This document shows positions 1 through 34,500 of a stretch of 34,500 nucleotides of DNA, in pieces (the first letter of the stretch is position 1; each line of letters begins with the position of its first letter). The DNA comes from Conidiobolus incongruus B7586. Taxonomy: Eukaryota. The position numbers were made by a program, and so were the translations under genes. The stretch lies in NCBI GenBank assembly GCA_000697335.1, contig JNEM01008461.1:1-34500 (forward strand), in the 5' to 3' direction. A model generated the notes under the pieces. It saw only the letters and a program-made list of their open reading frames with translations, was not told where the DNA came from and did not search any database.

Positions 1-150
1 TAAAAATTATTTTTTATTTTAAAAAGTTATTATATATATATATATATATAATTTAAAACTATATAATTTTTTATTTATTTTGTATATATATATTTATTTA
101 AATCTAATGATATATTTAAAAAATTTCTTATTTCTTCAAATCTAAGGTAA
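1..150 (-). mobile_element. 5' end (TIR plus 5' UTR) of a second copy of the mariner element found at 27089-28388; truncated by the window edge
   Basis: Bases 1-150 are colinear with about 28218-28388: shared AAAAAGTTATT(AT)nAATTTAAAA block and TTTTGTATAT. The terminus AAATTTCTTATTTCTTCAAATCTAAGGTAA|TA matches AAATTTCCCATTTCTTCAATTCTATAGTAA|TA. Similarity ends a few bases after GTAA-TA. Confidence 0.85.
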
Positions 151-1845
151 TATATTTAAACTTCAATTATAATTGGTAAATATTTAGATTAAATATTAAA
201 TTTTTTATGAATTCAATGTTGTCAAATAAAGCAAATAAGTTACTTTTGCACTTTGACAAAAACAATATATTCATTTCAATGAGGAGTTTTTATTCAATCT
301 GAAACTAAACATTATTATTTTTTTATTTTCAAAATATAATATACAGCTTTTATAATATCAAATAAAATAAATAATAAAAAATATATCAATCTCTTTATAT
401 GCTTTTGGTATAAAAATATTTATCAATCTATTCTTTTTAAGGCTTAATGAATAGAACTGATTTCAATATTTTTAAAGCTAATATCATATTGTATATAATT
501 TTATTAATTTTAATATAAATTATTTTATCTAATTAGCTTATTAACTATATTTTTAATGAATTTTAAATATTTTAGTCGTTGTTATTAATTCAATATTAAA
601 TTATATTTAGTTAAATTAATTAATATATTGTACGTATAAATATAACTCATTGCAATTACTATGTTATTATTAATTAGTCAATATTAATAAACTATATTTA
701 TTAATAAAATAAGGATATAGTACATACCATTTATTATATCTATAATCATGGTAAAATTCAAATATATATAACATATTTAATTTTGAATTAAAGTTTCAAC
801 TTTCTGTGATAGTGGACATCTTTATTATTAAAATTGCTTTTTTCAAAATTTGAAATATAACCATTAACAAATTCAAACAATAATAAGCTCAGTATATAAA
901 TTAGCTTTAATATTATTAATTTAAAGATATTTCAAAGAATTTGAATATATGTAGAATTAGGATATTAATTAGTAAAAAGCATTAAACAGACAAGTTATTA
1001 TTGTCATTTATACTTTCAATATAATATTCAATAGTTAATTTTGAATGAATATTCTAAATTTAATAATTAGCAAAATTTTTAAGTTACGACAATATATATC
1101 TTTGAATAAGTTATTGAAAAAGAATGAATGTTAGTTTGACTATAATTCGTATTTAGTGTTAACATTATAAGCACAAGTCAAAAATGAATTGAAATGCTTA
1201 AAAATAATAATAGCATATCAATGGTGAATTTGACTAAATTTGTCCTGTTCTTGGCTATTAGATTATATTTATAAAATCAAAGTATTTTTGAATATATATT
1301 TCATCCCTTATTCAAAATACTTAAATTTGATTTTAATTCAAATCCGAATGTTAAAGCACTTAATCTTATCAAAGATAAATTTTAACTCGATGCTATATAT
1401 ATTCAAAGATTTATCAATTCAATATATTATCAAATTCATATCGCACTTAATCTAAATAATTATATTTTTTTAAAAGGATAATTGGTGCTGAAATTAATAT
1501 TGATATGAAAATTGTTTGAGTGAGATAAATTCATCTACATCTAAATCCCTATAATATATTGCTTTGTCACGTAACCTATCTTAAATTAGACTAGTGATTA
1601 TCTAACAAAATATCAATGTTTTTGTAAACTAATTTATCAATTTTAATAATCCCAAAATCATTTTTAGTGACAAATTTAATTAAAAACTGTGGATCAAAGG
1701 ATGAGTGAATTTCCCATAATTAGAATCAATTTTGAATCATATAAATGGATTAATTTAATATTTTCAGTAAATTTAACCTTGACAATTATTATCAGTTCAA
1801 TTTGATATTAAAAGCATAAATATATTAACTGGAATTCTTGGTTTA

Positions 1846-3627: not shown

Positions 3628-4247
3628 ATTTTGTAAATAATAATTATAATATAATTACATTTAATATATGATTAATTCAATTTTGAACTCATTAAATGTA
3701 AAATGTAGAATAAACACAATTTTCTGATTGAAATATTTTAAATATTTTTGATTCTTGATGTCTCAATATATATATTGAATTCAGTTTTAATAATATATTT
3801 TATACAAAATCACTTAGATGAATGTTACTAATACTTTACATTTTAAATATAAAGGATCCAATTATATTATTCAAAAATGTAGTTAATTTTCCTGATATTT
3901 ACAAACAATAGTCATCTATCAAAAACTATATTTTTCCATACAGGCAGTCTCATCATTAAATTGATGACCCATAAAATTTTCAATAAATAAACAATATGTA
4001 AATTTAAATGATTATGTCACAAAATATTTATTCCAAATTACTATATATTGGATTAACAATATTGAATATTCAACTCGAAACTCTAAAATATTTATCAATA
4101 CTTTCTATTGTAACTATAAATTAATATTAGCTAAATTTCACAAATTTGATATTAATTTAATAATTTATTCATAATTAAATTCCTAATCAAATCTTCAATA
4201 TTCAAAAGATTAATTATTGAATTTGATCAGTTTATTAAAATTCATTC

Positions 4248-7200
4248 ATGCTAGAAAGAGTGTTATTGGCACTGTACCTAATTCCTTGGTACGCATGTAC
4301 CCATCTCTATCAAGATCAAGTTGGAAGATTTGATTGGCATAAGAAATATATAGGAACACCCACATCTCTTCATTCTATAAGTACTAATAATGAATCATTG
4401 CTTCAAACTGATTTGAATTATATAAGTTTAATCAGTTCAAAGAACTCAAGCATAATTTGGCGCTTTGAAGCTCAACCTGAAGAAACTATTATTGGAATTG
4501 AAGAAGGTAATCAAATATTTTTAACTTCGGCTCAAAAATCACGCTCTCATTTATACGCTTACTGCTTGAAAACTGGGGATTTATTATGGGAACAAACTAC
4601 TCCTTTGACATCCGGAACCTTATCTGTCCACCTTGATTACCCTACAATTTATCATACCCAAAATCATCAAACATTAAGCAAAGGCAGTATCACTGGAACT
4701 AAATGGAACTGGATTTATAATTTAAATCAAGATCAAGGGTTGATCCTTCAAACTGTACAAGTCAACCAAGGAGACGATAGCATTGTGTTATTATTCACCC
4801 AATTGGAAAATGAGTTACAATTTTACAGTATCAGTGATAAAGGCGATCAATATGTTATTTCGAATTCTAATACGTTATTCAAGTTCAAAGATCAAAACCA
4901 TGTTGAAAGTTGTGTTTATTATGACCCCAAAGATGATATAGACATTTTGATTTTTAAAAATTCTAACGAAATACTTTTAACACTGCTTAATACCCAAACA
5001 CCAAAATCCATTGTATTGGACCATAATGAAGATTTATCTTTATTCCGTTTATCATGCTCTAATTTTTACTCAAAAAATTCTTCAAGGAAATTGATGGAAA
5101 ATATATTATTGTCGAAAGAGTCATCTGATGGAAACATCCAATTGGCTACTCTAGATTTGGACTATCATAATCACAAGCTTCAAATCAAGAATCAGCTCTC
5201 TGTAAGTTCCCAGTCAAGCTTTATTATTGAAAAAGGAGCTATTATCACGCCACCCAATGATTTCTCTATCTCTTTTCAAAGCTATGGAAACATAGAAAAG
5301 GTATATTTTAATACGTTAGAAATCACAGTTAATTAAATTTCAATCTCTACTACAATAGATAATCCCAGTTACAAGTGAGAAGATGCTCGCAATTACTAAA
5401 GATGGAAGTTTCCACATGATTTCCAAATCATCTAATTATGACTGGGCAATTGATTGGTCTAGAGATGAATCACTATCTAAGACTCAAGAGACTATCTTTT
5501 TAGAATTTCCTATTCAGACCAACATATTAGTAAATTCAGAAAATATTATCACAGGTTTGTTTTAAACTTTATATATTTAATTTAATCTTATCAGCTTTAT
5601 AGATACCCAGAATGCTCTCTCATCTTTTACCACATATTCTCATCGTTTAAAATGGCACTATAGACAATTTAAAGTAATTCTAATCTCTTTATTATTTTGA
5701 ATATCTATTTATTTTATATTAGAAAGCTATATTCTCTTTCCTAGCATCGCCTATAAACACAATCATCAACTTTCACCCCAACCTATTGATTTCAGGAACC
5801 CAAAAATTGCTAGTGTTCGTTAATAACGATGGAAAAATCACCGCTTTGAATAGTCAAAACGAAGGAGAAAAGGTGTGGGATCGATTCTTGAATTTATCTG
5901 GTAAACTTACAAAACTTGTGTCTGCTCATGTTTTATGTTTTCCAATATCTTCGAGAAATACTCTAAGTCATTCAGGTGCTCCTATTTTAGTCCTAAGATA
6001 TGCTTCAGAGGTACCTTTAACCAAAGCTGATATTTTAATTATTATTTAATATGCTTAATTTATAGGATGGTAGACATCAATTGCATATCCTTGATGGATG
6101 GACTGGAGAATTAATTAATGGTCAACATCCTCATCTTCTTCCTCCTTCTGACTTGTCAATTGTCGATATCAAATACTTACCCTATCACCATCCCAAGTAT
6201 CATTGTAGACTTTTGGGTATGATAGACTCCAGTTCTAATGTCCATATATATCCATCAATTTCAAACCAAAGCATTAAAGAGCTTCTAAATTCTGATATAA
6301 ACCATCAACTTTACTACACTAAAATTGGAGACACTTCGCTTAATGGATACAAATTATCTTGGGATCATGATTCTAGTGTAAATTTATTGAATAGCTAACT
6401 TGAACTCCTATAATTAAATCGCTTTATAGAGCTTAACTAGCAAATCCTTATGGGAAATTAATCTTCCTAAGGGTTTTAAAATTTACAAATCAGAAATCAA
6501 TTCTGGAATTGGTAATTGCATAATTAAAATTATTTACCAATTAATTAATATTAAACTTATAACAGATCAAATGGCTAGTCCCGGAAAAACAGTTGGTGAT
6601 CGCTCAGTACTCTACAAATATCTAAATCCTAATCTTATATCCGTCATGATTCAGCCTATTAATGGAACTGGAATGAATTTGATGCTAATCGATTCAGTTG
6701 ATGGATCAACCATTTATCAAACTTCTCACCAAGATGCTGAATTAACGAATCCCTATTCTGCTCACCAAGTTTTATATGAAAATATACTAATTTACTCTTA
6801 TAACTCTAAACACGAAGTAAAATTTGTGATTTCTGAATTATATGAACCAAATAACAAGCCCAATTATATTATTTCATCAATCAATCGCCAAAATCCCAAG
6901 ATTTTGACATCTGCATTTACATTTTCTCATTCCATTACATCAATGGGATTCACTATGACCAATATGGGAATTACTAGTAAAGAAATCTTAGGTAAATCTT
7001 TCATTGGCACTATTATTCATATATTTATCTAACATTTGCATTAGTGTCTTTGGCTTCAAATCAAATTCAGGCTATTCCAAAGTTTAAACTAGATCCAAGA
7101 AGACCTATCGAAAAAATATCTACATATGATCAAGAAGAAGGATTAACTGTTTATAATCCAGCCTTGCCAGTTTTAGGAAAATCGCTGATTTCTTATTATC

Positions 7201-7548
7201 TAGATGTAAATAATTTATTTATAAATTGAACTTGATTGCTTATAATGTATATAGGTCGCTAATATTCGTAAAATTCAATCATACCCTAGCGAATATGAAT
7301 CAACAACTTTAATCCTAGCAAATGGACAAGATATTTATTTCACTCTCAGACATCCTTCTAATTTATTTGATGTATTAAGTGAAGACTTTTCTAAAATTTC
7401 TTTAATTGTCACTCTACTCGGATTAATTGCAGGAATTATTATGGTCAAACCTCTGGTAAACATTTCATTTACTAAAATGTATTCGATTATTAATTCTGTT
7501 CAATTTCCTTAGATCAAATCAAAGGTCCTTAAAGAGAGATGGGTTTAA
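4248..7548 (+). CDS. EMC1: ER membrane protein complex subunit 1; 10 exons (4248-5300, 5359-5554, 5603-5673, 5723-6010, 6066-6377, 6430-6511, 6566-6991, 7045-7205, 7255-7455, 7513-7548)
   Basis: Signal peptide followed by LYQDQVGRFDWHKKYIG. C-terminal EMC1 motifs ASPGKTVGDRSVLYKYLNPN, LDPRRP, ESTTLILANGQDIYFT and PSNLFDVLSEDFSK, then a single TM helix and LKERWV*. GT-AG introns of 48-58 bp join the ORF-track fragments. Confidence 0.93.
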
Positions 7549-9091: not shown

Positions 9092-11026
9092 ATGACTGCT
9101 GAAGAGCTTGTACCCAAAGCAAAGATGCTATCTTTGATTGTTAGGTAAAAGTAATAATAACTCAATTTTAGACAAAATATTCTTATCCATCATATTTCAA
9201 TAGTCAATTAGCATCTTATGGTTATGCCAATTTAGCCAAAGCTGTTGCTGAGCATACTAACACTGAAGTATCAGCTGCCTTAGACCCATCCAATCTTTTA
9301 GTTGAATACTGTTTCAAAGGAATGAAATGTAATTTTATATTTTGCACATTATTACTCTTATAATTAATTTTTATCTAAAGCTGGTGATAATGATAAAACA
9401 ACTGAAATCGATACATCCAGTAATGATGAAACTCAAGAGCAATTACCTGATACCTCAAAAGAAGAAACAGATACAAAGACTAAAGTTACCAGCGTTTTAG
9501 ACTGGGACACTGCAGATTTTCATGGTAATGTAAAAAACCATCGTATCAACTATGACATGTTGCTCATGTAGATTAATATTAGCGCCCATTCATTTTCCAA
9601 ATTACACGACCCCATACATCACTATACATCAGGCTGCCTGTCGCACTGCAGCATATAGCTGGGATGGTATATTAATTATAAGTCACCTTAAAATAAGCTT
9701 TTTCACATAGGAGTTATATAGGTAAATTTATTGCTACTGGATCCATGGATTCTACTTCCAAGTTATTTGACGCCTCAAAAATTGATGTCCATTCAGAAAA
9801 CCCAGAAGATAAACCAGTTATTAGAACACTTTATGATCATAGCGAAGTAAGTTTAATTAATATCATTGATATAACTTAACTGATCAATATCCTAGCCCGT
9901 CAATGGTCTTTCATTCCATCCCAATGGTTTGGTATTAGCTTCATGCTCAGATGACCTTTCAACCAAGCTCTATGACATTTCCAAACCTAGTGTTAGGAGA
10001 TCCTTTCGCTATTTCCAAGTAATAAAGCCTTTATAAATGATCATATAGCATTTTACTAAATTCACTTATGTAGGATGCATTCAAAGTTAACTCAATTTGC
10101 TTTCACCCTTCTGGAGATTATCTTGCTTCAGGTATATCTTTTTCGAACATGATTGGACTTATATTAATCATTTTTAGGTACCGATCATACTAATGTAAGA
10201 GTATACGATGTTAGAACTTTCCAATGCTATACACCTGGTAAACCTGATAAATTTCATGTTGGAGCGATCAATTCTGTAATCCAAATGAACTCTATGGATA
10301 AATACATTTATTAAGCCAATTTATTTTAGGTCCGATTTTCTAAACAAGGAAATATTATCACATCTGCATCTATGGATGGAAGTGTAAAAATATGGGATGG
10401 AGTCTCTGGTGATTGTATTCGTACTTTTGAAAATGCACATAAAGGAGCTGCTGTTATTTCTTGTGAATTAACAGCGAATAATAAATATATTTTAACTTCG
10501 GGTTTGGATTCTATTGTAAGACTTTGGGAACTTAGTAGTGGTAATTATAGTTTTTAATCAATATCAATCGAATAATTTAATATATCTTTATTTAGGGCGC
10601 TTGTTACAATCTTATCAAGGAGCTGTTCAATATGTAAATCATTTATTTATTGTATTTTATAATTTTATTAATATTTGTTGTTTTAGAAATTTTCTTGTAA
10701 TGCAGTCTTGAGTTATGATGAGAAATTTGTATTCAGTGGTGATGAAAGTTCATCAACTGTAGTTTGCTGGAATGCATTAACGGGTCAATTAGTCAATAAA
10801 TTAAGTGGTAGGTAAACCTCTATAGTTTTTACTTTATTCTAATATCATTTCTATTATAGGTCATACTGCTCCTGTTCGTTATATTGCTACTAGTCCAATT
10901 GGTACAGGTTTCGTTAGCTGCAGGTAATTTATAACTATTTTAATTTTAATATTTTTACCAATTATTCGCTATAATTTTAGTGAGGATTCCCGCGCAAGAT
11001 TCTGGGTAGCGGCTAAAACTAATTAA
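9092..11026 (+). CDS. CSTF1: Cleavage stimulation factor 50 kDa subunit (WD40), 13 exons
   Basis: Spliced translation: N-terminal MLSLIVSQLASYGYANLAKAV (CSTF1 dimerisation helix), YITIHQAACRTAAYSWDGKFIATGSMD, KPVIRTLYDH, KLYDISKPSVRRSFRYFQ, FHPSGDYLASGTDH, VRVYDVRTFQCY, and C-terminal CSEDSRARFW. All match CstF-50 motifs as I recall them. 12 short GT-AG introns; stop TAA at 11024-11026. Confidence 0.9.
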
Positions 11027-13880: not shown

Positions 13881-13989
13881 CCCTTCTATCTCAATCATCA
13901 TTGTTAACTTTTAGGAACTAAAGACTTTTACTTCGATCATCGTCTTTAGTATCCATCGTTCTTATTTAATATATTTTAATATTAATCAA

Positions 13990-14988
13990 ATGACGCGGAA
14001 TTCACCAATTGTTACTGAATTAACTCCTCACTTTAATAATATTCATAGTGATCTATGTCTTTCTTCTAAGCATACACAAGACACACATAAACCTTTAAAA
14101 AAGTTAAGGAAATTGCAATTGTTCAACACCTTTAGTCATGATTCTACCAAAGTTTTAGTGGATCAATCATCCAACCAACATAAGTCTCAGCAATCTGGTT
14201 TCAAAGGATTTATCAAAAAAATATTTGGCATATCACCTAAAAATAGCAACAAAATTGAAACCGCTCCTCCTTCTCCAGCCAAGCAATCCTTCGTTGTCAA
14301 TACACCTCAGCCGACTTCACCTCCTCTTGTCCCCAAGGACCATGTCAGTCCTGCTAAGATCACTAGTTGTGAACCAAAGCCTGCAACCATTGAGCCCATC
14401 ATCACATCACTTCCTCCTATATCCTCTTTTACTCCCGTAAAACGCCCACCCAGTGTTCAATCATCTCCTTCCTCCTCCACCACCAGTCTTCCTCGCTACC
14501 ATCCAATTAGAATCACATATAAAATTAGTATGAGGAAACTAAAAGAATTCCCTAACAAGCGCCCTTTACATCAGCTTATTTGCATTCAACAAGTAATTCA
14601 AAATTTAGAGCGACATCCCCATTTACATCTTAGTCGCACCCCTTCGCAAACCCTCCTGGAGAGGTCCGCCACGCTTTCTTTAGCATCCCCGGCATCAATG
14701 ACTGAAGTATGTCGAAGAACAAAGAAATCGCACACATCGTCTAAATCTAAAAGTCATAGAAAATCTATGCTAGATCTTTTGATTCCAGAGGAATGTTCGT
14801 TCTCTAGATATCCCTCCCCAACCAGATCAGTATCACCCAACCCTAAAATCCACAAGCCATCTTCACCCAATATCAAAAAGCAACGATACTACTCACTCCA
14901 AACTCCACCTAAAACAAAACAAAATTTCATGCTAGACTTGCCTAATGAGTTATTGGAAGGTCGCTATCCGACTTTTTCCAAATCATGA
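13990..14988 (+). CDS. Intronless Ser/Pro-rich, largely disordered protein (332 aa) with one putative Zds_C/SERTA-like helical motif
   Basis: A 999-bp ORF with GC well above its flanks and many SP/TP sites. The only ordered-looking segment is RITYKISMRKLKEFPNKRPLHQLICIQQVIQNL. The gene is well supported; the function is tentative. Confidence 0.8.
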   Translation: MTRNSPIVTELTPHFNNIHSDLCLSSKHTQDTHKPLKKLRKLQLFNTFSHDSTKVLVDQSSNQHKSQQSGFKGFIKKIFGISPKNSNKIETAPPSPAKQSFVVNTPQPTSPPLVPKDHVSPAKITSCEPKPATIEPIITSLPPISSFTPVKRPPSVQSSPSSSTTSLPRYHPIRITYKISMRKLKEFPNKRPLHQLICIQQVIQNLERHPHLHLSRTPSQTLLERSATLSLASPASMTEVCRRTKKSHTSSKSKSHRKSMLDLLIPEECSFSRYPSPTRSVSPNPKIHKPSSPNIKKQRYYSLQTPPKTKQNFMLDLPNELLEGRYPTFSKS

Positions 14989-19150: not shown

Positions 19151-19222
19151 TAGCAGCGAGAGGTTTCGATCCTCCGACCTCGGGGTTATGAGCCCCGCGC
19201 GCTTCCTCTGCGCTACGCTGCT
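19151..19222 (-). tRNA. Initiator tRNA-Met (CAT), intronless
   Basis: Minus strand reads AGCAGCGTAGCGCAGAGGAAGCGCGCGGGGCTCATAACCCCGAGGTCGGAGGATCGAAACCTCTCGCTGCTA. It has an A1:U72 pair, consecutive G:C pairs in the anticodon stem and T-loop ATCGAAA (A54/A60), all eukaryotic initiator hallmarks. Confidence 0.98.
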
Positions 19223-20512: not shown

Positions 20513-21187
20513 ATGGCCTTAAGTCAAGAATCTATCATCGCCATTTCATGTGGCTCTATACTTGGATTGGTAATCATAGCATCTGTTGTAGTTTATTTTA
20601 CTAGAAAGTCTTCACGTACTGAAGGTAATTGATAATCAGTTCACCCCATTTTCAAATTTTAATCTTGTGCATAGATTCAAGACTGCTTCAAGATCCTGAA
20701 AATTCTGTTCAAACTTCAGTCGATCAAACTCAAGCCAATTACAACACCTTTCAAAATTCTTCAACCAATTCAACAGCACCTTTAGTATCAGTTGTTGTTA
20801 CTGAGCAAATAACAACTGATCGCAAATTATCCCCTCAGATCAATCAAACTACTCAAACTAATACCGACTCAATTAATCAAAATGACCAGCTAAACAGACC
20901 TTCTAGCCATTTCGAAGGACATGATCACTTGACTGACTCTCAAGAAAACTCAGGTCGTTCTTCACCTGACTTGCAAGAACCTAAAACTCCCGAGCCTATT
21001 CATTTAGAGGCATCCCCTCAAGGAACTTATCGAGATAATATAGTTCTTAAGGGCGAGAAGTCTCAGAGAAAGAAAGCCAAAAAAGGTAAATACAATCCAA
21101 TTCACTAAAACATAGCTAATATCTTATAAATTAGGCGGTAAACTTTCTACAAAAGGAAAGAGGAAGTCAAAGAATAACTTATTCTGA
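20513..21187 (+). CDS. Hypothetical single-pass membrane protein, 191 aa; exons 20513-20624, 20675-21085, 21135-21187
   Basis: MALSQES, then hydrophobic IIAISCGSILGLVIIASVVVYF, then TRK, a S/T/Q/N-rich tail and a Lys-rich end (KKAKKGGKLSTKGKRKSKNNLF*). Two phase-1 GT-AG introns give a continuous frame. Confidence 0.78.
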
Positions 21188-21492: not shown

Positions 21493-23025
21493 TTACACTA
21501 ATTCTAATTGTCTGACAATATACAATAAAAATAAAGTAGCTAAAGACATAATGCCTATAGTATTCACAAATCCATCAAGATTAGGAAGATCCATTCCTGG
21601 AACTGTCACGTTCATTCCCATTAGCAGCGATCCAAGGGAAAAGGGCAGAATGGCCCAGGTTAGGGCTGAAAAAAATGCCAGTTTATCGTTGAATGCAGTT
21701 GCCGAATATGTCAATTCGAATTCCCAATTCGTCTTTTGCAGTTCGAAAGATCTTTCAAGAATTGTTTGAAGTAGTTTTGCTTCTCTTAGCATGGCAACTA
21801 TCTGTGTAAAAGAGCTATTGATCCAAATTTCAATATCTGTTGAATCAAGCAAATTGGATCGACTGGCCGAGCGAGTTAGTCCTTTTTCCAAAGACTCTGC
21901 ATGTAGCTGCTGCAAATTCGATGACCCGGGAAGATCTGTGAGAGAAGGGACGGGTGATAAAGAACGAAAAGAAGGAACAGGTGACAAGGAGCGCGCAGGA
22001 GTACTAATTTGAGAAGATACCTTTGAGGAATAGATAGAAGAGGGTCGATTGGCTGTAGTAGAAGGGATTTTACCAAATAGAGTTAGAAGACTATTGAAGA
22101 GACCGGGTTTCATATCTAGTAACTCTACAAAGTCGGATGATATTTTGCGTAACTGTGTTAATCGAGGTGGTAGCTGGTTTTCACCTTCTTTGGGTGAAAA
22201 ATGTCTCGTTATTCCTTCAAAATCTTCAGATATTAAATAAAAATCATTGACAGCAATAATTTCTTGTTCTAGAAATTTTAGCTGCTTATCTAAATGCTCT
22301 ATAAAGCTATAAAGCATTACACTACCAACCCAATCTGGTAACAACTTTGTTCTAAAATCTGGTTTTTGCAACATTGAAAGTACTGAATCTTGAATAGAGT
22401 GATTACCATAATCAAAGGTGACAATACAATTGGAGTGTATGACATTATAAACATAAGTATACTGGGGATCAGGAATATCTCTCCTCAAGTTAATTGGCTC
22501 ATCCGTTCTAGTAGCACTATCCATATCTAATTCAATTAATTTAAAAGATGTAACATAGTAGTTTTGGAATTCTTCGCACTTTTCAACTGGATCTTGGATT
22601 AGCAAATCTTCCAAAGTAAGGGGATGAAGCTTTAACATCTAATAAATCTCAGTTATATTTATATTAGATTAGTATTAATAGAAATTACCTGAGAAATTAA
22701 TTCAATTTCAAAAGAAATCGGTTGAAATATATATAGCCAATAGTGAGGTCCTTGATTAGAAGTAGAATTGAGTATAGATTCTAAATGACTAATATGTGCT
22801 ATTTGTATAGGTTTACTCGGGTTCCTGACTAATAATATTCGAGTGGTTTCAGGTACCTAAATTTATGATAAATTTAACATTGTCAAAGTAATTTAATATT
22901 ATGTAAGTTACAGTATACTGCTTAGATAACTTAGATAATGAAGTTGAACTACTATTAATTAAAGTATCATATGAAGAGTATTGAGACTGTTTCAATAGCG
23001 GGGTATTCTCTTCATGTGTATTCAT
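21493..23025 (-). CDS. CorA-family (Alr1/Mnr2-like) Mg2+ transporter, about 475 aa; exons 23025-22912, 22856-22689, 22638-21493
   Basis: YWL...P...E...LHPLTLEDL motif and two C-terminal TM helices with the signature GMN (LLMGMNVTVPG). Phase-0 GT-AG introns. The start could alternatively be 23097. Confidence 0.88.
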
Positions 23026-23145
23026 AAGTTCAGAAATTGAGCTCAAATTAAAAATAGGATGATATTTTATTTTATCTATATCATATTTGTTAGGCATTCT
23101 CTAACAAAATAAATATTTAAGAAATAGTTATTTATTTTAAAAGAA

Positions 23146-23148
<3 letters not shown>

Positions 23149-23184
<36 letters not shown>
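23149..23184. repeat. (TTA)12 microsatellite upstream of the CorA gene
   Basis: Direct reading. Confidence 0.9.
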
Positions 23185-23186
<2 letters not shown>

Positions 23187-25699
23187 TAAATTAAAAAATT
23201 ACAAAAGTGACAAGCATTTTAATGACATAAATAATTTATATTAAATTTAACTCATGTATATAATATTATGGGTTTATTATTTTTTATTATCCTTTGTTTT
23301 CATCAATATTTTCAAAGCCACAATATTTTATTCCTCAAAAGTATAACCAAATTAAAGAAAATTCATATATAGAATTTAATATTTCTTTCTACAATAAATA
23401 TTCTATTTAGATTTCTATGTAATAATCCTGGTTTTCTAGACTATATTACTGACCTAGCTTGAAAGCTGAATTTTCATTAATATATGAATATTTGGTTCAC
23501 ATGATATTTTTATAATATATAATTAAAGAAATCAACCAAAATATATTAATAAAAATAACTTATTTAATCTTCCATTTGCACAATAATTATATTTCAAAAA
23601 TTTTGAAATTAGTAATTCATTTATACTAGATTAACTTATAATTTGAAGTAAAAAATAATACTGTATCTTTAACAGAAAAATAATCAGTTTAACCTTTTTC
23701 TATAGCAAAATGTCTTACCATATACAATGTTTAGCTTGAAATTTATCCTTATAATATGTTATATAATATATAACTCAAGTATAAAATACTCTTGATAAAA
23801 ACTTATCACAATTAATTTACATTTACCAGTATTATTGTATAGTTATTTGAGTTCTATTGGCTATTCTTCTATAATATAATGATAAATCAGAATTTGTATA
23901 ATTAGAAACAGTTTAAATATCTAACAAAAATATTAATCAAACATATATGTTGCATTAAGTTTTTAATATTAAATGAATCAAAAATATATTTTAATTTATA
24001 TTGAAAGTAGCAACAATAATAAATAATTCAAAATATATAATAATAATATTGATTGATATATTTTGCTGAAATATCGATTATATAATATAATACTTAAATC
24101 TTATTATCCCTGTTAAAAATAATATTTAGAGTATTTACATTACTGAAAATTTGAATTTAACTATTCCTTAAGCATGAATTGATAATATTTTTATTTGGTT
24201 GATTTAATTTGGAATATCATATTCAACACTGATTTTCATATTAATTTTAATCTGATAACTTAATTGAAATGATATTTGTAAAACTATAGAAAAATTACAA
24301 GGATTATTTTATTGTATCGATTTACAATATTATACTTTTAGTGTTACATTATTACGTTTGAGAATTTTATAAACTTTGAATTTATCTCATATTGGAATGG
24401 CCAGATATAAAAAATATATGTTATAACTAATATAGTAATGTTATTATATATCAATATATAAATAATATGTCAAACCTTAAATCATATATTGTTATATATT
24501 TGAACTCAATTTATATATTAATCAGATACTTTAATTTCTATTTTCAATATATTTATTTTCTTTGAAATTAAATCACCCAGTGATTCCATAATGATATTTT
24601 CCAAGTATTAATTAAATAATGCAATTATTAAAAATTTCAAGAATAATTAATTACTTTCATAAACAGATATACTGCCACTCAAATGCAAACTATTAAATCA
24701 ACCAAATTTATGGTATCAATTAAATTTATTAAAAATGATTGTTATATTCTAATATTGGGTACAATTGGAAGAATAAACTACATAGCATATATTTAATGTT
24801 AAATTATATATAATTTCTCCTCCTTATATTATCATATCATATATTTAATAATATCGTGTAATTGTCCGGTAATAAAATCTGATACATATTTAATATTATT
24901 ATTAATTTTAAAAAAAGTTTAAACCAGAATAAAGTTGCTTATATCAAAAACATTCATTTATTTCTTTCAACTAAAGAAATATATTTTGCCCGTTACCGTA
25001 AACATATTAAGTTTATTACCTTTTTAGTTTAAAGTATTAATTATCTCATAATAGAAAAATACAACTAAAATATGATCTACCAATCAATAGTAATTGATGG
25101 ATTTGCACAAAAAAGCAACAAATAACACTAATACACAGTTTCTAAATTATTTAGTATCATTTTATTATTACTTGGAAATGAATTTTTGGTTTCAATAGAT
25201 TTCAAAAGATCTAATGTTGAATAAGTTAAAACCGATAACATAATACAGGATTATAAATTAATTTATAAAATTGATATATTTTTATAAATATTTACATATA
25301 TCTTATAATATATTTATTCAATTTTATTACTACTTAAATTTAAATTAATATTAATTTTAGGAATTTACTTTTCTCAATGTAGGTTGGTATATGAATTGAT
25401 ACTTGGATAGTCAATAAAGTTTGTATTCATTTCATTAAAATCAATTAATGTGATTAAAAGTTTAATAGAACCAATAAATCTTAATAAAATAACTTCAATA
25501 ATATAGTATTTTATAATCGGCAAATTATCAAATTTGTATCATCATTAACTTTTTATATTGTACTGTATATTTTCAAGTGGTGATATAGTGACCTCAGGGT
25601 TTGAACTGAACCATTCTATTGGAGTTAAAATTTTATCCAAGGATTCAAGCGAAATCAAACTTAATTCACCTGCATAGGTGATACGGAGTATAAAGTTGG

Positions 25700-25709: not shown

Positions 25710-26111
25710 GACGATGAATTCACATCCAAGTCAAAGGATTAAACAGTGTTTTAAAATCCTTTCATCCAAATATTTAAACTGCAAAAGCCTTAATTAATTG
25801 AAACAATAGTTGATTTATAAAATATTATCAGCTGAATAATGAGTATTGTTCGATTTTTAAATATAGATGAGATACATGTTATTCGCTCTATTTTAGGTGG
25901 TTGTATTTTATTCTTCGGTTTAATCTCTCTTTACATCAAAGAAAGATTATTTCTTTCTGAATCAAGTAAGTCTACTATTAATATAATATTACAATTCACT
26001 CAATAATATTATTTAGTGGTTGCTATACTATTTGGTATAGTTGTTGGACCAGTAGTATTGAATTTTATTGATCCGTATCAGTGGAAGCAACTCGACTATA
26101 TCACTTTGGAA

Positions 26112-26728
26112 TTTTCTCGACTTGTAATAGGTATTCAAGTTATGGCAGCTGGTGTATCTCTTCCCAAAAAGTATGTACTAAAAGAATGGAAATCTCTATT
26201 CGTCCTATTATTACTTGTAATGATCTGTATGTGGATGATATCAGCAGGTTTAATTTGCGCTTTCTTCCCTCTGTCATTTTTAGAATCTTTAGTGATTGCA
26301 GCTTGTATTACACCTACTGACCCAGTATTAGCCAATTCCATTGTGAAAGGTAAATTTGCTGAGAAAAAGGTACCGATTCACTTGAGAGACATATTGTCTG
26401 CTGAGAGTGGTGCCAATGATGGATTAGGGTTTCCTTATATGTTCTTTGCTATTTTTTTACTTGTTAGTAAGTCGCCTGGACAAGCCATGGGATACTGGTT
26501 TGGTATGAGTTGGGGGTATCAAATCCTACTATCAATTATAGTTGGTATATTGGTAGGATATATTGCTCGAAAACTCTTATACTATGCAGAACGAAATGAA
26601 CTCATTGATAAAGAGTCATTTCTTGCTTTTTGGATGGCATTAGCATTATTTTTAATTGGTGTTATGAGTATGATAAATAGTGATGATTTATTATGCTGCT
26701 TTGTAGCTGGTAATTCATTTACCTGGGA
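26112..26728 (+). repeat. Near-perfect direct repeat of 30215-30831 (offset 4103 bp)
   Basis: By-eye alignment shows 2 mismatches (26192, 26200), then 26201-26728 identical. A second high-identity block spans about 26913-27037. Confidence 0.9.
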
Positions 26729-27088
26729 TGATTGGTTCCGTGTTGAAACACAAGAAGCTTACTTGCAAGGAGTAGTGGATATGATTTTCAACTATTTGTT
26801 CCTTATTTACTTGGGCACAATTATTCCGTGGACAAATTTTTCAGTACCTGAATACAACATTCAAGTGTGGAAACTGGTAGTTTTAGCAATTCTTATCCTT
26901 ATACTCTGATGATTGCCAAGCCTTGTAGCAATATATAAGATTATCCCAGCAGTCAGAACCTTCAGAGAAGCAGTCTTTGCTGGATGGTTTGGGCCTATTG
27001 GTGTCTGTGCTATTTTCTATGCTATGATTGCTTTAGAAAAGCTAGAAGGTGCTGAGAATCAAGGATTACATTTGAATGTTATATATTA

Positions 27089-27120
27089 TTACTTTGTAAT
27101 TTAAATAATGGGAATTTTTT
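27089..27120. repeat. Left terminal inverted repeat
   Basis: TTACTTTGTAATTTAAATAATGGGAATTTTTT versus reverse complement of the right end, TTACTATAGAATTGAAGAAATGGGAAATTTTT. Confidence 0.85.
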
Positions 27121-27159
27121 GCAATTGAAAAAAAATAACCATTTTAATATATAAAAAGT

Positions 27160-28195
27160 AAAAATAATAATTTGTTTTATTTCTAATAACTTTTTGCTAT
27201 ACTTTTAGCAAAAATCTAACACTTAAAAAACAATTCTTTTTATTAAAGACTGAAATTTGATATTTCACAAACTAATTAAATTTTCCTGTAGAAATTTTCT
27301 TTCTTGTAAGCTAGTTTTTTAATTACTTAAAACAATTATAATTACATAGGTTATAATTTAAAGAATATACTAGATATAGTAGTTTTTTCTAGTTATTTTT
27401 AATTAAAAATTTTTTTACAACTTTAAATTTATATATTTTATAATTATCATGTAAAATAATAGGTTTTTTTAAATTTATTAAAAATACTAATTAAAAATAG
27501 TTTTATTTTAAAAAAATATAAAGTTTATTATTAATTAATTTTCTTTTAAAAATTAAATAAGAATAATGTATGTTATTATAATTTATTATAATAATTAACA
27601 TTTGTTTATTAATAAAGTATTTATTTAAAAGAATTTATAAAGGAGGTTAATTTAACTTAATCTAACATTTTAATTTATATTTTAATAAAAAATTATATAA
27701 AAAAATCTAAGATTTATTAATTATAATAATTTATTATAAAAGTTTTAGTTTCTAGTTATACTTTAATAAATTTTATTTAATAATAACTACTCTAGTTTTT
27801 TTTAAGTTTTAGTTAAATTATAAGGTATTTATTTTATATTTTTATTAATTAATTTTAATTTAAACTTTAATATATATAAATTACTTATGTAACTAATATT
27901 AAAATATCTTAATAATTCTTTAACTAAAATAAAAAAATATTTTTTAATATGTTTTTTTTTATTTTATTAACAATTAAAAAAATAATAGTTGAAATTAGTT
28001 TTTTAGATTTTAATAAGTTTTAGGTAGTTTTTTTTTAGTTTTAAAATAATTTACCTAGTAATAAATTGTTAATTTAAATAATACTTTATTATTAAAACTT
28101 GTTTATAAATTTTAAATGATTTTCAAGGGTTTATAGTTAAGTTTTACTAATACTAAAATAAAAAACTTTTGATGGTTACTATTTAGTTTAAACAT
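27160..28195 (-). pseudogene. Mariner transposase relic (about 340 codons, many stops, several homopolymer frameshifts)
   Basis: ATG at 28195. Ordered motifs as read, with back-mutated form in brackets: FNNKVLFKLTIYY*VNYFK (FGDEALSxSTIYxWVxRFK); NLLKSKKL at 28019-27996 (DLPRSGRP); *IPYNLT at 27831-27811 (WIPHDLT); IIIINKS*I (IITxDESWI); IILHDN intact, HDN at 27451-27443; *KKLLYLVYSLNYNLCNY (WExLPHPAYSPDYNPCDY); LLKV*QKVI (LPEVWQKVI). The 3' end is approximate. Confidence 0.88.
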
Positions 28196-28356
28196 AATTA
28201 AATTAAACAACTAATTTTAAAAAATTATTTTTTTAATCAAAAAAGTTATTATATATATATATATATATATATAATTTAAAAATATTTATTTTCTTATTTG
28301 TTTTGTATATATTTTTTTATTTGAAATTATTAATATGTTTGAAAAATCAGAAATTA

Positions 28357-28388
28357 AAAAATTTCCCATTTCTTCAATTCTATAGTAA
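28357..28388. repeat. Right terminal inverted repeat
   Basis: Inverted match to 27089-27120 and direct match to about 119-150. Confidence 0.85.
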
Positions 28389-29940
28389 TATATTATACCA
28401 ATTACATTTTTATAGTATTATCTTTAATTGTTGTTCATGGTATTACTATTCTATTATTTTAACTTGGTAAAGCTATGAAATTGTGTAGTGCCATTACAAC
28501 TAACATTTTATAGAATATTATTCAATGTTTGCCTAATATTCAACCAGGTAAAGAGATCATTATTAAAACAGTATCTGATGTGTGGAACAATGTAAATATT
28601 GATACAAATCAAGGTGATTTAGAAAAACAATCAAGTATATCTTGCCTTTCTACACACTCTGAAAATGTTAGTGTAATGGTCAAGATGAATGGTGAGGTAA
28701 AATATAGAGGCTCTGTAGAATTAGAATATACTAGACAAGCCTTGGAGGATAACTCAACTACTTCCAATTATTAATGCTTAATTAATAATATCAATTATAT
28801 CAAATTAAGGTAATAATAAAGGAAATATATATCATTTTACAATATCCTTAATTTTTATACTTTTCTATATACGATTGTATAATAATATTTTTGCTTCAAC
28901 ATATATTGGTTTAAATTTTCATTATTACTTACTGAATGATACATCATGAATATTTATATGCTTAAATGAACAATGTGGAGAAATTTCCTCTTCAAATAAA
29001 TAACTGCAATAAAACATCATTTCCAGTTCACATATAAATAATCCTTGTTATCATTCATTTATCTACAAATGATGTAATACAATGTTATGATAAATATTAT
29101 ATTCGTATACTCAATAAATGAATCATTTAATATATTTATTTTAAACTATTAAATATTTAATCAACTATTTTTAAAATGAATGCTAACGCAAAAATAAGTT
29201 TATATGTTTTATTACAACGAATAATTAAGTAATTTTAAATACTTAAAATTTTAGAATTATTGATTATTATTACTCAACAATTTGTAACCAATAAAAAATT
29301 CATAGTTTCTAGAAATATCTTTTTATTTTTATGTATAACTTTTATTTTCCCAAGTATAATTGTTTAAAGAAACAGAAACGTGTCAAGAAAAATAAAAACT
29401 ATTGCTTCAAAATCCTGAATTATCAATAGAATCTTCCACTAAATCCACTAATTTGGTATTTTTTTAAATGTGTTGTGATTTATAATTTAGCAGGATGATT
29501 AGGAATTTTGTTAGAGAGTTTAACCACAAGATCGGATTAAATCCATTTGCTTAATCAATTATCCACAATTAAACGTTGAAAATATTTCCTTATTTGGAAA
29601 TTTTGAGTTCAAGTAATAGGTTTGAGAGTTGCATTATAAAGAGAAGGTCAATATATACCAGTTGATGGGCTGATATACTTAGATTTTCATGAAATTCAGG
29701 GGTGAACTTGAGGTATCATTGCTTTTGGCTAGTTCCAATTATATATTTTTATCTACTTTCTACTCTTGGATGGAGTGTGTATAAAGATCCATGCTTTTGG
29801 TAAATGATTCTTGTTTAATGAGAAAATTGAAGTTTCTTTTGATTTAACTATAAATTATAAAGTTGAGGTTGAATTTGTTCAAGTTTTTAATATTTATAAA
29901 AATTTTCTACCATAGATTTCATCTATTTTTCTATGGCAAT

Positions 29941-31627
29941 ATGAGTTTAATAAGATTTTATAATACGGACGAAATCCATGTAATATGCGCTATACTGGGC
30001 GGGTTCATTCTATTTTTTGGCTTAGTCTCTCTATTTGTTAAAGAACGATTATTTCTTTCCGAAGCATGTAAGTTAATACCAGTGCTATATAGCAACAATC
30101 ATACTAATCTTTATTTTAGTGGTAGCTGTAGTATTCGGCATTATAGTTGGGCCTATAGCACTGAACTTTATTAACCCTTATGAGTGGACTAATATCGACT
30201 ATGTCACACTCGAGTTTTCTCGACTTGTAATAGGTATTCAAGTTATGGCAGCTGGTGTATCTCTTCCCAAAAAGTATGTACTAAAAGAATGGAAGTCTCT
30301 ATCCGTCCTATTATTACTTGTAATGATCTGTATGTGGATGATATCAGCAGGTTTAATTTGCGCTTTCTTCCCTCTGTCATTTTTAGAATCTTTAGTGATT
30401 GCAGCTTGTATTACACCTACTGACCCAGTATTAGCCAATTCCATTGTGAAAGGTAAATTTGCTGAGAAAAAGGTACCGATTCACTTGAGAGACATATTGT
30501 CTGCTGAGAGTGGTGCCAATGATGGATTAGGGTTTCCTTATATGTTCTTTGCTATTTTTTTACTTGTTAGTAAGTCGCCTGGACAAGCCATGGGATACTG
30601 GTTTGGTATGAGTTGGGGGTATCAAATCCTACTATCAATTATAGTTGGTATATTGGTAGGATATATTGCTCGAAAACTCTTATACTATGCAGAACGAAAT
30701 GAACTCATTGATAAAGAGTCATTTCTTGCTTTTTGGATGGCATTAGCATTATTTTTAATTGGTGTTATGAGTATGATAAATAGTGATGATTTATTATGCT
30801 GCTTTGTAGCTGGTAATTCATTTACCTGGGACGATTGGTTTCGTATGGAAACACAAGAAGCTCACTTGCAAGAAGTAGTGGATATGATTTTCAACTATTC
30901 GTTCTTTATTTACTTGGGAATGATTATCCCTTGGTCTTCATTTTCAGCTCCCGAATACGACATTCAAGTGTGGAAACTCGTCGTTCTCTCTATTCTAATC
31001 CTTATATTTCGACGATTGCCAAGCCTTGTAGCAATGTATAAGATTATCCCAGCAGTCAGAACCTTCAGAGAAGCAGTCTTTGCTGGATGGTTCGGGCCTA
31101 TTGGTGTCGGTGCTATTTTCTATGCTATGGTTGCTTTAGAAGAATTGGAGACTCCAGATGCAGCTGAATCAAATTTAAAAGTGACTCACTACTTAATGCC
31201 CATTGTGTTCTTTGTAGTATTATCGTCCATTGTAGTTCACGGCATTACTATTCCATTATTCTATTTGGGTAAAGTTGTAAAGTCCCGTAGTATTATAACT
31301 ACACAAACTGTCCATCACATTGTGAGTAGATTGCCCACAGCTGGATTGAGTCGTGAATTTAGCTCAAAAGAGAATTCTGCTATTGCATCAGATTTGTCCA
31401 AGAAGTCAAGTTTATCACAGAATTTGCCAGATCTGGAAAAACAAAATAACATTGGTTTGATTTCTGAGGATGCTAATAAATCTTTGGATATTACTATCAG
31501 ACAGGATGGTCAAGTTGTGTATAGAGGATCCATTGATGCTGCCTCTTTGCATTCTAATCAAGATACTGCAATTCCAAATCAAATAGAAAAGCCAAAAAGT
31601 CAGGCTCAAAACCCATATTTTAATTAA
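29941..31627 (+). CDS. NHA1: Plasma-membrane-type Na+(K+)/H+ antiporter, Nha1/Sod2 family, about 544 aa; exons 29941-30067 and 30120-31627
   Basis: Motifs FVKERLFLSEA, ACITPTDPVLA, LSAESGANDG, SDDLL, RRLP, FAGWFGPIGVGAIFY and SIVVHGITIP, with about 12-13 hydrophobic segments. 52-bp intron with GTAAGT donor, TACTAAT branch site and TTTTAG acceptor. Confidence 0.95.
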
Positions 31628-31948: not shown

Positions 31949-33504
31949 TTAGTAGCGCCATAATTTCAAAGTACGATCTTTGCCGCCAGAAGAAACTTTA
32001 TCACCTCCTGGGGACCAGTCAATTGCATAAACTTCATCCAAATGGCCAGGAAGATTGACCTTCAATTTTCCAGTACGATAATCCCAAACTTTACATGTGG
32101 CATCTTTGGAAGCGGAAACCAGCATTCGTGAATCTGAAGACCAGCACACCTGGTAAACTGAAGAAACATGGCCTCTAAGATTTTTAATAAACTTACCAGT
32201 GCTAGCATCCCACACCTTCACAGAGTTATCGAAAGATGCAGAGGCAATTAGACGACCATCAGGTGAAAAATTCACATGGTTGACAATCTTTTGATGACCT
32301 GTCATCCTTGCCAAAGGCTTGTCATTCTTAAGAGGATCCCAAAGGAACATGGTAAAGTCATCGGATCCTGTTACCACTCTTTCCCCATTAGTTTTGACCA
32401 CTTCATTGTATCTCTCGAGTGCCTTGGCTTGTCCTTCTTCAGGAGTATCATATCGCTTACCTGTATGATCGAATTGCCCTGTCCTAAGTACGTAATCTGT
32501 GCTTAAAGCAATTGTATTGACCCAGTGAGCATGGCCTGAAAGTGATTTAATCAAAGATCCGGTGGCTGGATTCCATAACTTAACAGTACGATCTTGGGAT
32601 GTTGTATAAATAATTCCTTGTGGAAATTGAGCCAAATCATTTCCACCACCCCATTTGACACAAGTAACGCTTGATGTGTGAGATGAAAATGTCATAATTG
32701 TCGTCCTCCTTACTGTATCCCAAATTCTTACTGTACCATCTTTGGAAGCAGTGGCTAATCGAGGATTCTTGGGATTAATATGATAAGGCTCCCAAGCTAA
32801 GCTTGTCACCCATTTTCTGTGACCATTGAGAGGATTTCCGATCATTTTACCAGTTTTAGGATCCCATAAACGTACACTTTTATCCATGCTGCCTGAAGCT
32901 AGCATACTGCCGTCAGGAGCCCACTCAAGACACAAAACCCAGTTAGAATGACCTTGGCAAGTAAACTGTGGTGTTTCAGTATTGAGATCCCAAAGACGAA
33001 CAGTTGTATCGCCAGATCCAGTAGCAAGGTATGAGCCGTCAGGAGAGAAGCGACAAGATAACAGAGCTTCTGTATGGCCACTTAAAGTTGAAGAGCATCG
33101 AGTAACTGCTCTTACGCGAAATACAGCTTGAGGGTGATAGACAATAGTTAAAGAGTCTTCGGTTGATTTTTTTCCACTTTGGATTAAATCTTCATAAACA
33201 CTACGAATTACTTCAGTTTGATCAACTTGAAATGAATAAGGCAAAGGCTCTTCCTAAATTAAAGTTAATATAATGAGTTCGAGTTAATTTTACATGTACT
33301 TACATTGTTAAGTAATTTATTCAATAGTAATGTTAATTGTTGAGGAGTGATCTGAGCAGGAATACTTAAGGGTGGGCCAGTAACCTCACCATCGGCTGTT
33401 TGGAATCTAGCCGACACAGTAGCTGTGGCTGAAATAGCTGCATTTTTAGAGTCATCAGGACCAATCTGATCTTGTACTTTCCTTTTTAAGGGTACGGAAC
33501 TCAT
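31949..33504 (-). CDS. RSA4: Ribosome assembly protein 4 / Notchless homolog (NLE/UBL domain plus WD40 repeats), about 501 aa; exons 33504-33304 and 33253-31949
   Basis: QLTLLLNKLLNN|EEPLPYSF, STEDSLTIVYHPQAVFRVRAVTRCSS, GHAHWVNTIALSTDYVLRTG and GHLDEVYAIDWSPGG; 50-bp phase-0 intron. Confidence 0.96.
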
Positions 33505-34212: not shown

Positions 34213-34500
34213 TTAGACCAATTTGACTTTCTTACGAAGAGATTCTTTGTAGGCTTCAATACCACCTTCAGTCCATTCTGTAATACGGCCATTATCAACT
34301 AACCAAATGGTTTCGGCAACTTGACTGATCAATCTGAAGTCGTGAGAGACTAAAACCATACCACCGTCGAAATCGTTGATAGCTTTGGCCAAGGAGTCGA
34401 TTGACTCCATGTCTAAGTGATTTGTAGGTTCGTCTAATAATAAGATGTGGGGTCGAGAGAGGGCCATTTCAGCAAAGACCAATCTGGATTTCAAACCATC
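34213..34500 (-). CDS. ARB1: 3' end of an ABCF-family ATPase (Arb1/ABCF2-like); partial, continues beyond the window
   Basis: Walker B/D-loop [14 protein letters not shown] and H-loop [17 protein letters not shown], typical of the ABCF2/Arb1 second nucleotide-binding domain. Confidence 0.85.

Follow-up and report, generated by a model that had tools for sequence, protein, structure and literature searches.

The window analysed here is a stretch of 34,500 nucleotides of Conidiobolus incongruus B7586 (contig JNEM01008461.1). It carries a number of host genes, among them two tandem NHA1 genes, and the remains of a transposon inserted in the first of these two (Table 1). The position of the host was assessed with the RSA4 gene. 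A host outside Dikarya had been suspected in the first-pass annotation of the sequence, and this is borne out by the match of the RSA4 main exon to the C. coronatus protein (Table 1) and by the grouping of RSA4 with Neoconidiobolus, Entomophthora and Massospora in an entomophthoralean clade (SH-aLRT 100 in a quick tree of 35 rows). No Dikarya protein occurs among the 120 best matches for RSA4 or NHA1, and hence the tree has no Dikarya rows. These comparisons place the host in Conidiobolus sensu stricto (Entomophthorales, Zoopagomycota); it is distinct from the reference strain of C. coronatus. The mutation pattern described below would have been ordinary repeat-induced point mutation (RIP) had the host belonged to Pezizomycotina; this does not apply to Conidiobolus. 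Early divergence had also been argued from a retained CstF-50 gene. The CstF-specific Pfam family was not found in this gene, and the argument is not needed for the placement.

Table 1. Features of the 34,500-nucleotide window
Feature	Position	Strand	Remarks
End of a second mariner copy, clipped by the window edge	1..152	-	blastn 76% over 171 columns, E 5e-32; TIR and TA present
Zn2Cys6 transcription factor	1783-3627	+	
EMC1	4239-7512	+	
WD40 gene (CstF-50 of the first-pass annotation)	9172-10711	+	one exon matches WD40 families; no CstF-specific family (Pfam)
Ser/Pro-rich open frame	13915-14988	+	no Pfam match
tRNA-Met (CAT)	19151-19222	-	
Gln/Ser-rich open frame	20629-21108	+	no Pfam match
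CorA-type transporter	21493-22638	-	
NHA1 (Na+/H+ antiporter) copy 1, pre-insertion part, pseudogene	25839..27086	+	CGA>TGA stops at 26907 and 26910; CpG gone in last ~350 bp
528-bp tract in NHA1 copy 1	26201..26728	+	identical to 30304-30831; 74 CpA/TpG and 6 CpG sites, zero differences
Mariner-type element, 1,304 bp	27087..28390	-	bounded by TIRs and TA duplications
TA target-site duplications	27087-88 and 28389-90		flank both element ends
Left terminal inverted repeat (TIR)	27089..27117		22 of 29 bases as in right repeat
Dead DD34D transposase frame	27167..28190	-	HTH region, WVPHEL-like motif, triad at 27718/27448/27343
Right terminal inverted repeat	28360..28388		paired with left repeat
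NHA1 copy 1, post-insertion part	28391..28774	+	0 CpG; several C>T at conserved residues
NHA1 copy 2, open frame	29941..31627	+	PF00999, E 2e-47; internal control
RSA4/notchless main exon, taxonomic marker	31949..33253	-	93% identical to C. coronatus KXN73565
ABC-type protein, end	34213-34500	-	

The insertion in NHA1 copy 1 is a dead 1.3-kb DD34D mariner relic. Both its ends, with TIRs and TA duplications, and its coding part, with the HTH region and the DD34D triad, identify it as a member of this group. The span originally annotated (27160..28195) lies inside the element, which is longer on both sides. The second and third Asp columns of the triad are 35 codons apart, and AAT is now present at two of the three Asp codons. 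The transposase frame, with a GC content of 11.8%, is interrupted by two frameshifts and, over 300 aligned codons, by 19 stops. The read-through translation of the minus strand gave 41 phmmer matches among 1.84 billion proteins (best E 4e-18, 29% identity), 40 of which aligned as mariner-like; the remaining one is an unrelated repeat protein. Eight of the matches were compared with Pfam and showed DDE_3 in all eight, Transposase_1 in seven and HTH_48 in four cases; the read-through relic itself had no match in Pfam. A profile made from the phmmer matches aligns to 300 minus-strand codons with D-D-34-D spacing, crossing the two frameshifts, at an E value of 2.5e-39 that is not independent evidence, since the profile was built from matches to the same element. 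The nearest public proteins, most of them unnamed, share 19–44% identity with the relic over the matched stretches. No intact member of the family was found among the 1.84 billion protein representatives, a library from which the host is perhaps absent. A search for short family fragments yielded none in 313 candidates at E ≤ 0.01, and when the closest intact relative was used to scan metagenomes, the 71 candidates included one weak locus, which was set aside. With Mos1-like DD34D mariners the element has in common the length of about 1.3 kb, TIRs of about 29 bp, the TA duplication, HTH and DD34D, and motifs of the WVPHEL and YSPDL type. The leader of the second copy, clipped by the left window edge, carries the same (TA)n run as the main element. 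Between the element ends present in the window there are 22 substitutions, 12 of which are A<->T, and this comparison is too noisy to use.

The element is repeated in high copy number. Contigs from four sequencing runs of one sample were mapped at 80% likeness to positions 26900-28240, a span outside which the right element end and the identical NHA1 tract lie. Between 18,752 and 24,346 contigs per run matched this span, and contig depth jumps about a thousandfold at the element edge. At position 27087, 50–67 contigs per run depart into unlike flanks; these junctions set a floor on the number of insertion sites and are not a copy number, nor was summed contig depth taken for one. A second cluster of 15–17 junctions is located 4 bp beyond the main end (27083 versus 27087). 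Together with several joints between element parts, it suggests that some copies are nested or carry deletions. Less-mutated copies exist as well, since a few of the loose contig ends are richer in G. Three runs bearing the same species label contained almost none of the words searched for and were left out of account.

The sister copies made it possible to follow the amount and direction of mutation. In the four runs, the places that vary among the copies are transitions in 298 of 360, 292 of 355, 298 of 360 and 301 of 365 cases. The other variable places are mostly A<->T; in run X2 just 23 of 355 are transversions of another kind. About 187 places that are T or A in the window copy are C or G in sister copies, and 136 C/G survive in 1,152 bp. 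At least about 58% of the C:G pairs have thus been lost from the window copy, a floor that is rough because copies less than 80% alike were excluded and some places are perhaps forward changes. Among the 37 best-supported element places (from the best 40 of 380 variant rows, which are biased to sites where most copies retain C/G), the window copy has T/A against a majority C/G in 26 cases, the opposite in 2 and a transversion in 9. A hand count of same-strand runs among these 26 sites gave 15 against about 14 expected. This absence of clustering does not support processive bursts.

The same direction is evident from the conserved transposase residues. Out of the 40 profile columns with p>=0.4, 23 are identical in the relic, and 14 of the 17 altered ones need C>T/G>A alone. 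The opposite changes, T>C/A>G, explain none of the 17. A shifted-register null gave a mean share of 13% and a maximum of 24% for residues needing C>T/G>A only. In the likelihood model, P(C>T) is about 0.66 overall, and T>C and each transversion are at about 0.001. The first-pass annotation had recovered the transposase motifs by reversing only T->C and A->G changes. This holds for the 14 residues, but the word "only" is slightly too strong, since other changes are required at 3 of the 17, and transversions account for 9 of the 37 sister-copy differences. Its reading of the six inferred Trp columns as five TAG, one TAA and no TGA was reproduced exactly; TTA and ATT stand at two further, weaker Trp columns. 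For Pro codons the expected CTA is present at PHP, NP and LP, TTA at the Pro of SPD, and CCT is kept at two columns, but the Pro of HDNARPH is ATA and not CTA as had been claimed. The stops across the 300 codons are 11 TAA and 8 TAG, and the lack of TGA among these 19 fits a loss of TpG following the loss of CpG.

The C:G>T:A transition excess affects both strands, as in RIP, and it is confined to the repeat within the window. Of 68 windows of 1 kb, two have a clearly positive composite RIP index, both on the element, and one further window scored 0.0; the genes retain CpA/TpG. The copies, the conserved residues and the likelihood model agree in confirming the earlier claim of a both-strand, transition-dominated hypermutation of a high-copy repeat, far past neutral drift.

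None of the 152 surviving C of the element stands in CpG, against 8.3 expected from the noncoding DNA of the window (Poisson P ~2.5e-4). The lack of CpG had been noticed from the sequence with the reservation that few are expected, and the deficit goes beyond what this reservation allowed. The base 3′ of the surviving C is A in 48, C in 16, G in 0 and T in 88 cases, compared with 1397, 372, 160 and 1003 in noncoding DNA; CpA is underrepresented relative to CpT among the survivors (Fisher p 2.6e-7). The observed/expected ratio of CpA is 0.72 in the element and 1.1–1.3 in neighbouring noncoding DNA, and that of CpA/TpG is 0.58 in the reading frame and 1.0–1.2 in genes. Survivors in TpC are depleted as well (Fisher p 4e-7). 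The contexts of the 26 sites mentioned above (CpT 18, CpA 7, CpC 1) were not read as the target spectrum, since those sites were drawn from places where most copies keep C/G.

An independent-site model assigned C>T values of ~1.0 to CpG, 0.74 to CpA, 0.66 to CpT and 0.31 to CpC (LRT 35, p 1e-7), and it barely parts CpA from CpT. Since neighbouring bases mutate too, sequential simulation was used, started from proxy ancestors. All context models refer to one copy and to proxy ancestors taken from relatives ~25–30% identical, and the ten scenarios of the simulation were set by hand. The simulation rejects a context-free, a CpG-only and a strong-CpA spectrum. Two of the ten scenarios fitted, both with relative weights of 10 for CpG, 2 for CpA and 1 for CpT plus a 5′ effect. 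ABC with 34,866 draws gave ratios of 2.2 (1.2–4.4) for CpA/CpT, 8 (1.2–45) for CpG/CpT and 0.36 for 5′A/5′T, and P(CpG>CpA) was 0.83 from a prior of 0.58. We estimate that CpG is struck at least as strongly as CpA, followed by CpT and then CpC, and that a 5′ A is protective; CpG is probably a stronger target than CpA.

CpA had been named as the favoured target in the first-pass annotation. CpA is indeed hit about twice as strongly as CpT, but CpG is struck at least as hard, and the Neurospora-like strong-CpA simulation fails. The element thus does not show the CpA dominance of Neurospora-type RIP. The target context varies among RIP species, and the missing dominance therefore lowers the probability of membership in RIP without excluding it. 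Neither is CG spared, as it would be by a Dim2-type mutator; CA and CG are both struck. Decay at CpG only, in which CpA/TpG is kept or gained, is not seen within the element but is seen in the flanking NHA1 pseudogene.

The tandem NHA1 genes provide an internal control. A change in copy 1 was regarded as damaging when at least half of 60 homologues have the residue of copy 2 and no more than a tenth have that of copy 1 (13 changes); two further stops were added. All 15 changes lie within ~330 bp to the left or 140 bp to the right of the element, and none in 26012-26728. Ten of them are C>T/G>A, five at CpG and five at CpA/TpG as read from the codons. Over 739 bp the flanks contain 2 CpG, compared with 15 over 790 bp in the intact paralogue, and they retain CpA/TpG (Fisher p 0.004). 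The element sits at the centre of a 2,045-bp stretch devoid of CpG, the longest in the window. The second-longest (22999-24075, 1,076 bp) contains a (TAT)n run and has no RIP-index signal. In the right flank 16 of 45 C/G are changed, and in a distant part 10 of 39. Since these shares are comparable, no leakage of CpA mutation into the flanks is claimed, only the loss of CpG and the clustering of damage near the element. We estimate that on either side the CpG-only decay reaches ~350–400 bp into the host gene. Such a gradient, with CpG affected in the flanks and CpG, CpA and CpT inside, would be expected from spreading methylation combined with a non-CpG mutator confined to the repeat.

The two NHA1 copies share identical 528-bp tracts that lie 4.1 kb apart. 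Neither has been mutated, and the NHA1 partner is intact. RIP of the Neurospora type acts on linked duplications above ~400 bp and mutates both partners. The unmutated perfect duplication thus counts against pairing RIP of the Neurospora type, although it is not decisive: recent conversion, an assembly mosaic or the absence of sex since the duplication may explain it. The mosaic of diverged and identical segments in the NHA1 pair suggests gene conversion or an assembly mosaic. Contigs at 26933, 27050 and 27056 carry another copy-1-like NHA1 version at 2–3 times the depth of the window version, and further paralogues, alleles or a heterokaryon are candidates for its origin.

With the element, the host clade, the many copies, the one-way transition excess and the confinement to the repeat directly observed, the process works like RIP; its membership in RIP is unproven. 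As the best explanation we propose, with a little less than even confidence, that the C>T loss is caused by a mutator linked to a cytosine methyltransferase of the DNMT1/DIM-2 family and aimed at transposon chromatin. The copies would be packed into heterochromatin, where the enzyme would methylate CpG, with spreading into the flanks, as well as non-CpG cytosines, staying within the repeat. In successive rounds it would then promote the conversion of methylated C to T, probably with no need for two copies to pair or for a sexual cycle, by analogy with the mitotic mutator of Zymoseptoria tritici, which depends on Dim2. The result would be RIP-like, with transposases killed irreversibly. Several observations speak against this proposal. 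The Z. tritici Dim2 mutator spares CG, while in the present element CpG ranks first or shares first place among the targets; the posterior for CpG over CpA rose only modestly above its prior; the untouched NHA1 tract may reflect recent gene conversion or an assembly mosaic; and 5mC is described as scarce in Zoopagomycota in the portion of PMC11258239 available to us.

A true RIP, or a convergent equivalent, would involve pairing around the zygospore stage and a RID/Masc1-like enzyme, with CpG methylation decay on top. The depth of the loss, the involvement of both strands, the order CpA > CpT > CpC and the TAG and TAA codons without TGA are what RIP relics show, and C. coronatus is reported to have no 1-kb repeats at 95–100% identity and 555 at 80–95% (PMC12543289). 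The same study, however, scores this species as "no_rip", and Masc1/RID homologues are unreported from Zoopagomycota in the accessible part of a survey of 633 proteomes (PMC5751038). Furthermore, the strong-CpA spectrum, rejected here at z ~6–7, would leave surviving CpG, and the 528-bp perfect tandem duplication persists along with the intact NHA1 partner. We consider true RIP somewhat unlikely. Passive decay, in which copies densely methylated in all contexts lose 5mC by slow spontaneous deamination and no dedicated mutator acts, appears rather improbable. It would account for CpG being the most depleted context, for the CpG-only decay in the flanks and for the absence of strand clustering, and early-diverging fungi are known to carry 5mC on transposons (PMC11258239, as far as accessible). 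More than half of the C:G pairs are lost, though, against 9 majority transversions in 1,152 bp among the best-supported rows, and this tens-fold gap includes CpT. Decay restricted to CpG is rejected (z 4–6) and would raise CpA/TpG, which is lowered in the reading frame.

A cytidine deaminase, AID/APOBEC-like or other, might instead act on transposon DNA independently of methylation. This is suggested by the preference for 5′ T over 5′ A and by the depletion of TpC survivors; yet a TpC flank also belongs to the known RIP-like target TpCpG (PMC3318451, in the part accessible), and the strong preference for 3′ G/A and the CpG-only decay of the flanks suit methylation better. We regard a deaminase as very improbable. 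That an old element simply drifted with the usual AT bias of an AT-rich genome is scarcely credible. The unique noncoding DNA of the window does have a GC content of just 17–23%, but that of the element is lower still (11.8–12%), and the conserved residues are kept in 23 of 40 columns with almost no transversions. The deficit of CpA relative to neighbouring noncoding DNA and the failure of the context-free model likewise contradict drift, and neutral drift is rejected. We think it somewhat more likely than not that entomophthoralean fungi have a bona fide RIP-like defence, which would be enzyme-driven, kill repeats at CpG and CpA, and either predate Dikarya or have arisen independently from a different methyltransferase.

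The existence of RIP-like mutators beyond Dikarya is disputed in print (PMC11105155 versus PMC12543289, each in its accessible part). Stajich et al. 2024 report RIP indices of 24.2% for Zoophthora radicans, 5.7% for Entomophaga maimaiga and 2–6% for allies, and state that RIP may operate beyond Dikarya "with major caveats" (PMC11105155). Their RIP panel, as given in supplement 1b, includes no Conidiobolus or Neoconidiobolus (C. coronatus and N. thromboides are absent). PF00145 is described there as present in all entomophthoralean proteomes examined, including that of C. coronatus. Badet and Croll 2025, in the accessible part of their study of 1,239 genomes, found the RIP signature almost exclusively in ascomycetes and list C. 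coronatus as "no_rip" (PMC12543289). According to the part of Muszewska et al. 2017 at hand, Masc1/RID occurs in Pezizomycotina as well as in a few further members of Dikarya, and for Batrachochytrium a bacterial transfer is listed as probable (PMC5751038). DIM-2 is placed in early-diverging fungi by two reviews (PMC7862722, PMC13297926, both as far as accessible). A RIP-like signal has therefore already been published for the order, from Z. radicans and its allies (PMC11105155); new here is copy-level, direction-resolved evidence from another entomophthoralean lineage. We found no report of RIP-like mutation in Conidiobolus itself in literature whose scope left out most subscription papers and off-site figure data. 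The Conidiobolus element adds a distinct spectrum, CpG plus CpA, as well as a gradient in the flanks that points to methylation. If the pattern is true genome-wide, it would place the origin or the convergence of genome defence by mutation further back than Dikarya, and it would show that surveys based on annotated repeats can overlook heavily eroded cases. Conidiobolus is culturable, unlike its obligate insect-parasitic relatives, and if it has a RIP-like defence of the kind outlined above it would be the first tractable non-Dikarya system for finding the enzyme.

Compared with the RID/Masc1-dependent RIP of Neurospora crassa and other Pezizomycotina, the Conidiobolus element shows the same C>T mutation of repeats on both strands, the order CpA > CpT > CpC, AT-rich relics, TAG/TAA codons and a positive composite index. 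It differs in its Zoopagomycota host, in CpG being struck at least as strongly as CpA, in a CpA preference of only about twofold over CpT and in the unmutated linked 528-bp duplication. The Dim2-dependent mitotic mutator of Z. tritici, as described in the accessible part of PMC8016269, also causes repeat-confined C>T mutation including CpA, and there the tie to a methyltransferase and the independence of sex, which are part of our proposed model, are reported. In that fungus more than 98% of C>T changes occur at CA and CG is spared, whereas CpG and CpT are heavily struck here as well. The TpCpG hypermutation of Pucciniomycotina (Horns et al. 2012) and the CpG decay of other basidiomycetes (PMC3318451, in part) resemble the present case in having CpG as the top target and in the preference for 5′ T. 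Their TpG/CpA products persist, while in Conidiobolus CpA/TpG is depleted and CpT is struck. The RIP-index signal of Entomophthoraceae (PMC11105155, in part) belongs to the same order and is likewise RIP-like outside Dikarya. That signal is a window dinucleotide index, whereas direction and spectrum were obtained here from the transposase and the sister copies.
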